Positions 8,538 to 10,468 of a DNA stretch of 24,650 bases are shown here, one piece after another. The position numbers and the translations under genes were made by a program. The notes below the pieces were generated by a model, which was given only the letters and a program-made list of their open reading frames with translations, was not told the origin of the DNA and ran no database searches. Numbering within the stretch: the stretch's first letter is position 1; each line of letters starts with the position of its first letter. Source of the DNA: a virus; the UHGV virus genome UHGV-0200293; one strand, 5' to 3'.

Positions 8538-8561
8538 ATAAAAAAGGCCGCCGAAGCGACC
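8538..8561 (-). terminator. Rho-independent terminator after the GNAT-like/60-aa moron
   Basis: The minus strand reads GGTCGC-ttcg-GCGGCC-TTTTTTATTG, with a TTCG tetraloop. Confidence 0.75.
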
Positions 8562-8586
8562 CTATATGCATTTGGTTTTAATTAGC

Positions 8587-8769
8587 TTAAGCAAAGGAAA
8601 TAGGCATTTCCATAAAGCTATCTAATGTTTCTGCCTTTCCATTTAAAGCAGACGGGGAAGGAACTTGAGCCAAAGATGCTGCAAAGAAGCTGGACTCCTC
8701 TAGGGCCTGCATAGCATTTTTGCGCAGCTCAGGGCTCATAGAGTCAAGTATTTCTTGAACAGTTCTCAT
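8587..8769 (-). CDS. Hypothetical 60-aa protein, second gene of the moron
   Basis: The ATG at 8769 is preceded by GGAGGTgaaa. The track's GTG start at 8775 has no spacer. The segment is AT-rich and a terminator lies downstream. Confidence 0.55.
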   Translation of the reverse strand: MRTVQEILDSMSPELRKNAMQALEESSFFAASLAQVPSPSALNGKAETLDSFMEMPISFA

Positions 8770-8838
8770 TTTCACCTCCAGTTAACAACATATGTAGTCT
8801 ACTACCTTCAATCTCAACGTTCCACAACATATTAATGA

Positions 8839-9408
8839 TTAATCATCATCAGCCTCAAAATCATGTTGCCCGCGCGATTCTTTTAAACGGCGTAACGTTT
8901 CATCGATGTTTTGAAGCGTAGACTCCATCAAGTCTGATTTTACAAAGTCGAATGAGAGGTGCTTGTAGTAAGGAACAGCGTATGGTAAAGGATTAACCAC
9001 GCGTATCACAGATGCTTTCGCTGTCCTGGCAAAAACAAGAGCAACGTTAAGAGCTACAAAACCCATACGTTTAACAAGATGATCATCATGGACTTGTCGC
9101 TTAAAGTGCTCAATCATATGGATGTTGACCAACTGATTTTCCATATCATAAGAGAACACTGCGGCACCGATGGTGATCGGTGGTCTACCCTTTGAGGATA
9201 CCGACAAGGTAAACTTGTTGGTAAGATTTTCGTGTTCATTTTGGAACCAACCGCTCCAATCCAGCACTTTTCCACGAAGGCTTTCAATCTGTAGCGCGTC
9301 AGCTTCACTTAAAAAATTGAGAGATAATTTTATTTCTAAAGCATCAAGTTCTTGCTGAGTTGAAACTAGCGCAAGTTCATTAACAACTTCGATTTCTTGC
9401 CGGTTCAT
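8839..9408 (-). CDS. GNAT-like (acetyltransferase-fold) protein with a helical N-terminal extension and an acidic C-terminus
   Basis: ...LVKRMGFVALNVALVFARTAKASVIRVVNPLPYAVPYYKHLSFDF resembles GNAT motif A plus the C-terminal beta-alpha. The gene is AT-rich and inserted between the Mu-F-like and scaffold genes. Confidence 0.5.
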   Translation of the reverse strand: MNRQEIEVVNELALVSTQQELDALEIKLSLNFLSEADALQIESLRGKVLDWSGWFQNEHENLTNKFTLSVSSKGRPPITIGAAVFSYDMENQLVNIHMIEHFKRQVHDDHLVKRMGFVALNVALVFARTAKASVIRVVNPLPYAVPYYKHLSFDFVKSDLMESTLQNIDETLRRLKESRGQHDFEADDD

Positions 9409-9469
9409 ATGAGTTCATTTTTAAGTTTTTTCTTATGATACCTAATCATACTACCAAAAGTTATTACAA

Positions 9470-10468
9470 TTAAGTCCCTTGCCATGATATTCGTTCTTTC
9501 GCCAACTTTTCCTTCAGCCCTTCATTGAAGATGCTGCCGTCGTCATTGAGTAGCACCGGAATCTGGCTGCAGTAACAGTTGTACCGGTTGCCGTTCTCGG
9601 CGTAGAAGTTGCGCACCTCTTCGGTCGTGTAGACCTTTCCGTGTCGGCTGGCATGCCAGGTGCGCGTCGTTGGCTTGAGCGCTGACAGCCACAGAAGGCC
9701 GGTGTTCAGCCCAAGCCTGTCGGCCGCCCAGTCCGTTTCATTCCACTGCGCCTGCCGCAGCGCGCCGACCTGTTCAGTCTGAGCGATGGTCTTCGCCTTC
9801 GACATCGACACATCGAGGCGCTTGCTGATGACACTGGCAGTCTCACGCGGATTCACTCCCCGCGCCACTGCATCAGTGATTATGTTGGTCAGATCGCCGC
9901 GGGCTGTATCGCTGATGACCTTCCAGTCACTGAACGTTGTCAGCCTGGCCGCCGCTATCTGGTTTAGATATCCGGGGCTGTTTAAAAGCTGCTGTAACGT
10001 CGTCTGGCTGGCGTACACCTGCGACTGCTGCGAGAAGTTGTTGAAGGCCTCCAGCGTACCGCGCCGCGCCTCTGCGGCGACGTAATCCATCGCCCAGAGG
10101 TTTTGCTCGCCGCCATCCAGCAGGTAATCGTCGAGAATGGCCTGCACCGCTTCGAGGAGATCCGCCAGTTCCTGCGCCGACATGTCGTAGATGAACTTGC
10201 CTGCGTTGACCTGGTAGAGCCGCATATCCTCGCCGTTGTCGTGGCACAGGAAATGCCAGTTATGGCTATTAACTTCTCGCTCTATCCCTTTCAGGCGTAG
10301 GTCGAACAGCGCTTTCAGTGCGCGCTTGATGCCGAGATACCGGTCCTCGATATCCCGGTACATCGCTGTTACCTGCTTTGCCGATCGGGTCGGGTCAACC
10401 TTGCTGCGCGGAACTACCGGTGTCCCTACTTTCGTCTTTTGCTCCGGTGTCATCGGAAAGAGGATCAT
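9470..10468 (-). CDS. Head morphogenesis protein (Mu F / SPP1 gp7 family)
   Basis: The C-terminal ...TEQVGALRQAQ...TRTWHASRHGKVY... pattern fits. It lies just after the portal gene. The start is uncertain (10468, 10453 or 10363). Confidence 0.75.
   Translation of the reverse strand: MILFPMTPEQKTKVGTPVVPRSKVDPTRSAKQVTAMYRDIEDRYLGIKRALKALFDLRLKGIEREVNSHNWHFLCHDNGEDMRLYQVNAGKFIYDMSAQELADLLEAVQAILDDYLLDGGEQNLWAMDYVAAEARRGTLEAFNNFSQQSQVYASQTTLQQLLNSPGYLNQIAAARLTTFSDWKVISDTARGDLTNIITDAVARGVNPRETASVISKRLDVSMSKAKTIAQTEQVGALRQAQWNETDWAADRLGLNTGLLWLSALKPTTRTWHASRHGKVYTTEEVRNFYAENGNRYNCYCSQIPVLLNDDGSIFNEGLKEKLAKERISWQGT

Follow-up and report, generated by a model that had tools for sequence, protein, structure and literature searches.

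Within UHGV virus genome UHGV-0200293, the late region of a prophage carries two small genes between those for its Mu-F minor head protein and its scaffold/protease-like protein (the window, as used below, is the whole stretch of 24,650 nucleotides (nt) that was analysed). Together these two genes form a rare mobile moron, seated in a cargo hotspot of a Citrobacter prophage head operon. In bacteria the pair is obligate, as the two genes were never found apart among the recovered loci. Judging from sequence, the cassette may encode a putative GNAT-fold effector together with its cognate neutraliser, the two forming a module for defence or addiction, an assignment that is tentative and held with somewhat less than even confidence. 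The features concerned, all on the minus strand, are the following.

13356..11881, minus strand: terminase gene, in the prophage late region of the window
11870..10395, minus strand: portal gene, in the same late region
10468..9470, minus strand: gene of the short Mu-F minor head protein, left border of the slot (PF04233 at 1.5e-11, PHROG 758 at 1.3e-138)
9435..9473, minus strand: AT-rich leader with two overlapping weak sigma-70-like candidates (from sequence and scoring)
9408..8839, minus strand: open reading frame (ORF) of the 189-amino-acid (aa) GNAT-fold protein, the proposed effector enzyme (PHROG 4350 at 4.7e-19)
8770..8838, minus strand: intergenic gap of 69 nt, with two conserved blocks and then a ribosome-binding site (RBS) (from an alignment of nine cassettes)
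8769..8587, minus strand: gene of the 60-aa acidic partner, the proposed cognate neutraliser (ATG start with RBS)
8531..8563, minus strand: intrinsic terminator AGGGTCGC-TTCG-GCGGCCTT with T-run, plus the conserved junction TTATTGCCTGA (from a terminator scan)
8507..7311, minus strand: DUF2213 scaffold/protease-like gene, right border of the slot (PF09979 at 1.7e-4, PHROG 760 at 8.6e-144)

A 147-aa ORF and a DUF6260 major capsid gene make up the rest of the late region, with integrase and lysis genes further right. The initial annotation had described a two-gene AT-rich insert in the slot between Mu-F and DUF2213, and this holds: both ORFs are present on the minus strand, the GC content of the cassette (8566-9469) is 0.397, compared to 0.487 for the whole window and 0.54-0.62 in the flanking 300-nt windows, and the peptide strings that had been quoted (KRMGFVA, VVNPLPYAVPYYKHLSFDF and DFEADDD) are all found in the 189-aa ORF. 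The base composition of the insert thus deviates from that of the surrounding phage genes, as expected of a moron. The small ORF reads 62 aa from a GTG start and 60 aa from the ATG at 8769, which has a GGAGG RBS (8779..8775). Both ORFs are real genes under purifying selection: where synonymous sites (dS) were unsaturated, omega of the large and the small gene was 0.13 and 0.16, respectively, between the window and locus L005, and 0.08 and 0.13 between loci L008 and L022.

Searches with the large protein led to 15 loci (48-100% identity, the window counted), each with a homologue of the small gene 63-69 nt downstream, and searches with the small protein to nine further loci, each with the large gene upstream, which makes 24 close loci. 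Searches with alignments A1 and A2 contributed only a few of the loci, again all with both genes. In the distant loci (L013, L014, L015/L016, L028, L029 and L035), with identity down to ~20%, the layout of the pair is kept, i.e. the large gene, a gap, an ORF of 53-92 aa, and a hairpin with T-run. At L015/L016 (39% identity) the partner has 92 aa and an N-terminus homologous to that of the window small protein, while in phage mEp460 (L013) the pair corresponds to gp23 and gp24, which belong to PHROG 4350 and PHROG 2741, respectively. Co-occurrence of the pair, which had been put forward earlier as a check, is strongly supported, by 24 of 24 close loci and by the distant relatives. The intergenic gap spans 63-244 nt over all loci and the small gene is downstream in every one of them, which bears out the earlier remark that the large-then-small order is the reverse of that in the ribbon-helix-helix (RHH)-GNAT toxin-antitoxin (TA) systems. 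The pairwise identities of the large protein correlate with those of the small protein (r = 0.93, Mantel p ~2e-4) and the dN values match; this correlation shows co-inheritance, and by itself not binding. The large-protein family is small: a search of 5.8 billion proteins gave 15 clusters (90% identity), and one of 1.84 billion proteins no more than 17 representatives (50% identity); the small protein gave nine clusters in the protein search.

Slots, boundaries and expression signals of the cassette

The different slots that the cassette occupies in prophages and islands number at least six. In a Serratia prophage (L012) the Mu-F gene and the DUF2213 homologue lie 3 nt apart, and the cassette sits instead between terminase and portal, so that in the window it constitutes extra genes between otherwise adjacent ones. 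Further slots lie between Q and holin (L014), between int and xis (mEp460), and between the lysis genes and terminase (L015). At L028 (4001-5815) the cassette is located outside any prophage, in a chromosomal island with sspB on one side and a glutamate-synthase-like gene on the other, where it adjoins a TnpB (Cas12f1-like_TNB) fragment, which suggests that further vehicles exist for its mobility. The pair is also retained where the prophage has decayed. In four loci (L008-L011) the head operon is deleted 30 codons into DUF2213 with the pair still intact, and Candidatus Pantoea multigeneris (L017) has the intact pair as an orphan, still ending in the head-operon terminator and junction and adjoining a gene that is read as icd.

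The statement that the Mu-F and scaffold genes are normally adjacent stood only in part, because the two abut in Serratia L012, whereas close relatives of the window usually hold other cargo there. In Klebsiella phage ST101-KPC2phi6.1 (L001) the slot contains a 74-aa ORF, in E. coli LR-28 (L003) and A14 (L031) a 170/171-aa PHROG 17948 protein with an N-terminal hydrophobic segment, in GB089 (L032) ~540 bp with no annotated gene, and in E. coli GN25 (L033 1961-2314) a Rap1a/Tai-family type VI secretion system immunity gene on the opposite strand. Like classical lambdoid and HK97-like morons (e.g. HK97 gp15), the cassette is inserted between adjacent genes, has a deviant GC content and its own terminator, and occupies a hotspot; it differs from them in consisting of two co-evolving genes, in having a weak candidate promoter, and in its many slots. 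It therefore has the structural marks of a moron, a demonstrated promoter excepted.

In most close loci the cassette lies directly behind Mu-F, and the arrangement of an enzyme-like domain just after Mu-F, followed by a small ORF, resembles that of the MuF polymorphic toxins (PMC5576092). Downstream immunity ORFs of these toxins are recognised by a length of <150 aa, which compares to the 53-92-aa ORF present in all loci, and the order of toxin and then small immunity gene fits the logic of polymorphic toxins (PMC5576092); moreover, two BFVD proteins annotated as 'minor capsid protein' have a GNAT-like domain. The pair might thus be a split toxin of the MuF type, in which the GNAT-fold protein is packaged in the virion with Mu-F and portal and injected, and the small ORF encodes the immunity protein. 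This is very unlikely, however. MuF toxins are fused to the C-terminus of MuF, whereas in the window PF04233 reaches 302/332 of a 'short MuF' that stops at 9470, and the large gene is a separate ORF that follows after an AT-rich spacer of 61 nt. The cassette is also not restricted to MuF neighbourhoods, the slots between TerL and portal, Q and holin, int and xis, and lysis genes and terminase, as well as the chromosomal island, being unrelated to Mu-F, and GNAT is not mentioned among the MuF toxin domains in PMC5576092.

The terminator scan placed a hairpin with a TTCG loop at 8563..8544, followed by a T-run. The cassette had been credited with a terminator of its own, and hairpin, loop and T-run are indeed there, but the same terminator also ends unrelated cargo and a second moron. 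It is conserved behind different cargo in relatives, and it ends both the cassette in the Serratia slot between TerL and portal, with changes on both stem arms, and the orphan cassette of L017. In fact, a hairpin with T-run was present 3' of the small gene in every cassette inspected. The exact terminator 19-mer GGCGGCCTTTTTTATTGCC recurs at 4410..4392 of the window, with 0 copies expected by chance. An Rfam search of 8300-9700 yielded nothing credible, the sole match being a C. elegans snoRNA model (E = 0.8). Irrespective of the function of the pair, the hotspot between Mu-F and scaffold is served by a recurring terminator and junction that are common to unrelated morons, and which may constitute a shared boundary for the exchange of cargo by recombination.

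The second small moron is located at 4438-4611 (minus strand) and comprises a 57-aa ORF (MSEVSGYNTGNF...) with its own RBS, for which Pfam, PHROG and PADLOC searches were negative. It lies within a stretch of 373 nt that measures only 110 nt in L005, and its terminator (4392-4421) contains the cassette 19-mer. A third copy of the terminator core, with 3 mismatches, is found at 3760-3778 (minus strand), just upstream of the major tail gene (3750..2941).

The leader at 9409-9469 had been described as promoter-like; a consensus promoter was not confirmed there, as a strict sigma-70 scan of 7000-11000 gave none and the best candidates are weak. These are TTAATT (9473..9468) and TATGAT (9450..9445) at a spacing of 17 nt, and ATAACT (9464..9459) and TATCAT (9440..9435) at a spacing of 18 nt, each with 8/12 consensus positions. 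A -10-like TATCAT/CATAAT is present 25-31 nt 5' of the start codon in cassettes L005, L020 and L022, and also in L012, i.e. in a different slot. Within the intergenic gap, the blocks TGGAAC (8824..8819) and TAGACT (8801..8796), which are spaced 17 nt apart, are kept across the nine aligned cassettes, and they persist although dS of the flanking genes is saturated. In distant cassettes the gap contains strong promoter-like sites, for example TTAGCG-17-TATAAT in L028, which has a TG upstream, and TGGACA-16-TAGAAT in L014. Together with the conserved blocks, these sites hint at a separate promoter for the small gene, and the gap possibly holds a weak internal one; such a promoter would fit an antidote that is required in excess.

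The two proteins and their relation to known systems

The only family match of the 189-aa protein is PHROG 4350, the function of which is unknown. No GNAT family was matched at E<=1 by the window protein in Pfam or NCBIfam, nor by any of 18 family members in Pfam scans, and a profile search over all PDB sequences did not return a GNAT for the large protein either. One UniRef record of the family has been auto-named 'N-acetyltransferase domain-containing'. Matches to Anth_synt_I_N (0.0034) and ALF (0.035) were below the cut-offs and were dismissed as chance. The AlphaFold2 model has a predicted local distance difference test score (pLDDT) of 85, and its matches in structure searches, Foldseek among them, are GNAT folds only. 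It has the order of elements of the GNAT core, i.e. beta1-alpha1-alpha2-beta2-beta3-beta4-alpha3-beta5-alpha4-beta6(-beta7). The GNAT fold is therefore well supported as far as the model goes, and the initial annotation was right at the level of the fold, while its GNAT call is unsupported by any profile search. KacT, AtaT and TacT are among the structural neighbours, yet are no closer than SpeG, NatD or Gcn5.

Five residues (L49, W51, E100, Y148 and F153) are invariant in 18 sequences with identity down to 18%, E100 being located in strand beta4. When the family profile was aligned with E. coli RimI by hhalign, only a 16-residue alignment of motif B was obtained, at a probability of 3%, in which Y148 is opposite Tyr115 of RimI, which we take to be the general acid of that enzyme. 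The family has a motif B with a conserved Tyr ahead of a G-F turn (Y148 and F153), as well as a candidate general base (E100), from which we infer catalytic roles for Y148 and E100; catalysis by the large protein is plausible. The acetyl-coenzyme A (CoA) signature Q/R-x-x-G-x-G/A at the beta4-alpha3 junction, on the other hand, could not be reproduced in any register of the family sequences, the junction being FKRQVHDDHLVKRMGF in the window protein and HPLxGRM in distant members. Known GNATs bind CoA through backbone amides, so that loss of the signature lowers the case for CoA binding without excluding it.

The large protein ends in an acidic tail (GQHDFEADDD), and 17 of the 18 members of its family have an isoelectric point (pI) of 4.3-6.1 and a net charge of -3 to -17. 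In the close branch the core of the enzyme is basic (pI 9.3 for residues 60-177) and is combined with an acidic partner, whereas in the distant branch an acidic enzyme is combined with a basic partner.

The small protein had been described as helical and acidic, which proved correct: its AlphaFold2 model is a helical hairpin (helices at 4-10 and 13-34), and its pI is 4.4. No Pfam or PHROG match was obtained for it. Across the nine clusters 27 residues are invariant, every one of them within positions 1-44 and none of them a Lys, while residues 47-60 have a pLDDT below 50, i.e. the variable C-terminal tail is probably disordered. The C-termini of the close group (8587-8631 in the window) are mostly FA or YA, and those of the distant partners are basic and end in AA: KLRRRKAA (L013, i.e. 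mEp460 gp24), KRKESKKAA (L014), RRRVREAA (L028) and KCKQREAA (L029). Both types of ending resemble ClpXP-type degrons such as those of the ssrA and MuA tails. A conserved N-terminus followed by a hypervariable C-terminus is also what a ribosomally synthesised and post-translationally modified peptide (RiPP) precursor would look like, with a leader (1-44) and a core (45-60) that would be modified by the GNAT-fold enzyme, and a lasso-peptide acetyltransferase is indeed among the Foldseek matches. That match is just one of many generic GNAT matches, however, the basic C-terminus of the distant partners is conserved, and no protease, exporter or other maturation gene occurs in any slot, which makes a RiPP-like pair extremely improbable.

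In having a GNAT-fold enzyme and a small partner encoded by two genes, the cassette resembles the GNAT/DUF1778 (RHH) TA systems (TacAT, AtaRT, KacAT and ItaRT). Another likeness is the Tyr at the motif-B position, a position that is catalytic in the GNAT toxins of these systems. There are also differences. The antitoxin gene of these systems is upstream and coupled, whereas the partner gene of the cassette is downstream at a distance of 63-244 nt; the large protein fails all GNAT hidden Markov models and is without the Q/RxxGxG/A signature; and its family is acidic and as such unsuited to tRNA binding, which indirectly disfavours tRNA acetylation. In addition, the partner is without DUF1778 or RHH, its model being a hairpin and tail with no RHH-type beta-strand. 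By the definition in PMC9177977, the cassette does not belong to the GNAT/DUF1778 TA systems. Kinship to the tRNA-acetylating RHH-GNAT toxins, to which the initial annotation had alluded, is thus unsupported, given the absence of DUF1778, the reversed order and the acidic enzyme family.

The solitary copy in phage CkP1 and the possible function of the pair

The only place where one gene was found without the other is the virulent T4-like Citrobacter phage CkP1, in which CkP1_0081 is identical to the small gene of the window at 158 of 164 nt, the match beginning exactly at the RBS, and from which the large gene is absent. CkP1_0081 is inserted between two genes whose homologues in Salmonella phage Melville overlap by 4 nt, a protein synteny that was used since no close DNA relatives of CkP1 were found to show the empty site. 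The region is early-gene-like, beside nrdC-type genes. Among 50,697 phage records the small gene occurs in CkP1 alone, and the same holds among the 364 records that share the gene next to it. Its host is Citrobacter koseri, and the proteins of the window have been named by NCBI as those of an unclassified Citrobacter. CkP1_0081 is without the native C-terminus, due to a deletion of 3 codons and a read-through of 21 residues. The direction of transfer is undecidable from GC content, which is ~37-40% in the prophage and CkP1 copies alike; nevertheless, transfer from a prophage to CkP1 seems likely because all diversity of the family is found in prophages and the CkP1 copy is closest to the window variant.

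A similar asymmetry occurs at L035 (751-1573, on a metagenomic contig), where an in-frame TAA interrupts the large gene shortly ahead of the RM(G/A)F motif and the 59-aa small gene is intact; the stop could reflect a real inactivated effector or an assembly error. At L036, frameshifts are present in both genes. To find the putative antidote without the effector, and never the reverse, is what one would expect of toxin-antidote pairs; the basis of this pattern here is one capture and one nonsense allele.

The fact that virulent CkP1 keeps the small gene alone, in an early-gene-like region, could also mean that the pair is a counter-defence module, in which the small protein inhibits an immune system of the host or of a prophage, an advantage to virulent as well as temperate phages, and the GNAT-fold protein has an accessory role, modifying either that target or the small protein itself. 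A small size, acidity and helical structure are typical of inhibitors, and GNAT anti-defence enzymes such as AcrVA5 exist. On the other hand, anti-defence genes of temperate phages are usually early, whereas the cassette is found, with its own terminator, in the late operon, between Q and holin and between int and xis; it has been retained in dead prophages and in a chromosomal island, settings in which no phage can profit from it; and if the small protein alone were enough, one would expect to find more solo copies than a single one. A counter-defence role is therefore considered unlikely.

With a likelihood as low as that, the pair could serve lysogenic conversion, the large protein being a non-toxic acyltransferase that acts on a host metabolite, an antibiotic-like cation or a protein, with the small protein as regulatory subunit, chaperone or substrate. 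The acidity of the enzyme family would fit, as GNATs that act on cationic substrates (polyamines, aminoglycosides) are likewise acidic, and so would the moron anatomy, the retention in decayed prophages, and the nearby cargo genes, which are fitness factors. It would leave unexplained, however, why a virulent phage took only the small gene and why the small gene is never lost, and the lack of an invariant Lys in the small protein makes conserved Lys-acetylation unlikely.

The nearest functional precedents appear, by analogy, to be neutraliser pairs of the Tai/Ati type and the antitoxin analogues of phages. In Tai/Ati of phi80 (and also Tab and BstA), a prophage defence gene and a small neighbour that binds its product and switches it off are inherited together (PMC11364771). 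The cassette is similarly an accessory pair in the morphogenesis or late region of a prophage that is inherited as a unit. In contrast to the non-contiguous operon and opposed regulation of Tai/Ati, however, both of its genes are on the late-operon strand before one terminator, and while Tai blocks tail assembly by binding, the cassette protein has an enzyme fold, which by description sets the pair apart from Tai/Ati. Phages that express antitoxin analogues are exemplified by T4 Dmd, directed against RnlA/LsoA, and by pseudo-ToxI (PMC8829019). CkP1 likewise is a virulent T4-like phage with a stand-alone small partner of a two-gene module; Dmd and the cognate antitoxin are not homologous, whereas CkP1_0081 was copied directly and recently (96% at the nt level) from the gene of the putative neutraliser.

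Following the effector-neutraliser reading, the cassette would be transcribed alone in the lysogen, from weak promoters 5' of the large gene and perhaps also from the gap, with the terminator insulating the late operon. In lambdoid late operons Q-modified polymerase is assumed to read through the terminator, and because the terminator would otherwise be purposeless in a late operon, the cassette is presumed to be a self-contained transcription unit that is active in the lysogen. The GNAT-fold effector would acylate a target, whether a cationic protein or a small molecule, of the cell or of an infecting phage, and the small protein would bind and neutralise the effector, either as antidote or as self-immunity factor, so that the pair would serve the lysogen as a toxin-antidote-like module for defence or addiction. 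CkP1 would escape this module by expressing a stolen copy of the antidote.

The evidence that favours such a putative module includes the GNAT fold, invariant E100 and Y148, obligate pairing, co-divergence and moron anatomy. To this can be added the asymmetry of CkP1 and L035, retention of the pair after decay of the prophage, charge complementarity and the precedents. For the TA-like, abortive-infection or counter-defence function that had been put forward initially, the solo capture by CkP1 and the retention in decayed prophages provide circumstantial support, and the capture suggests, without proving it, a role in conflict between phages.

Several observations weigh against an effector and its neutraliser. 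The stretch where the acetyl-CoA signature is expected reads D-D-H-L-V-K-R-M-G, and with the signature unrecognisable the large protein could be a pseudo-enzyme. The capture by CkP1 is a single event, and its ~4 non-synonymous and 2 synonymous substitutions are uninformative on selection; it would be equally well explained if the small protein itself were an anti-defence factor. The candidate promoters are weak (8/12) and absent from the strict scan. The genes, at 63-244 nt from each other, are translationally uncoupled, which, together with a small protein without DNA-binding domain, makes classical type II autoregulation unlikely. Finally, neither of the window proteins matched PADLOC at E<=10 or any named family, and mEp460 gp23 and gp24 were unmatched at E<=0.1, the defence catalogue being PADLOC-DB v2.0.0, dated 2023.

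A more specific version, which is doubtful, is that the cassette represents a hitherto unrecognised anti-phage (abortive-infection or exclusion) system of prophages, consisting of a putative diverged acidic GNAT-fold acyltransferase and a small labile antidote, with PHROG 4350 and PHROG 2741 as a second branch; CkP1 would then have captured the antidote, minus its native C-terminal tail, as a counter-move. Literature searches returned nothing specific on the large or small family, on mEp460 gp23/24, or on GNAT-based anti-phage systems. If the pair is indeed an effector and its antidote, a GNAT-fold family that is unseen by sequence profiles would join the conflict systems of prophages, and PHROGs 4350 and 2741, both of unknown function, would be given one. 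CkP1, being a sequenced and cultivable virulent phage with only the putative antidote, would be a natural experiment. Should that reading fail, the cassette would remain a clear case of an obligate moron with two genes, though of ordinary interest.

Other features of the window and its relatives

In E. coli A14 the DUF1073 portal pseudogene (L031 3470-3761) has been named 'anti-CBASS protein Acb1 family protein' by RefSeq, which looks like a naming artefact.

In the window itself, synteny with intact relatives extends to ~3434, inside the major tail gene (2941-3750), and an AT-rich block begins just left of it. This plus-strand block (1-2940; 33-39% GC) encodes a GT2 glycosyltransferase (271-1227) and a 566-aa ORF without Pfam match, and it may be either a gtr-like O-antigen conversion locus or the result of truncation of the prophage.

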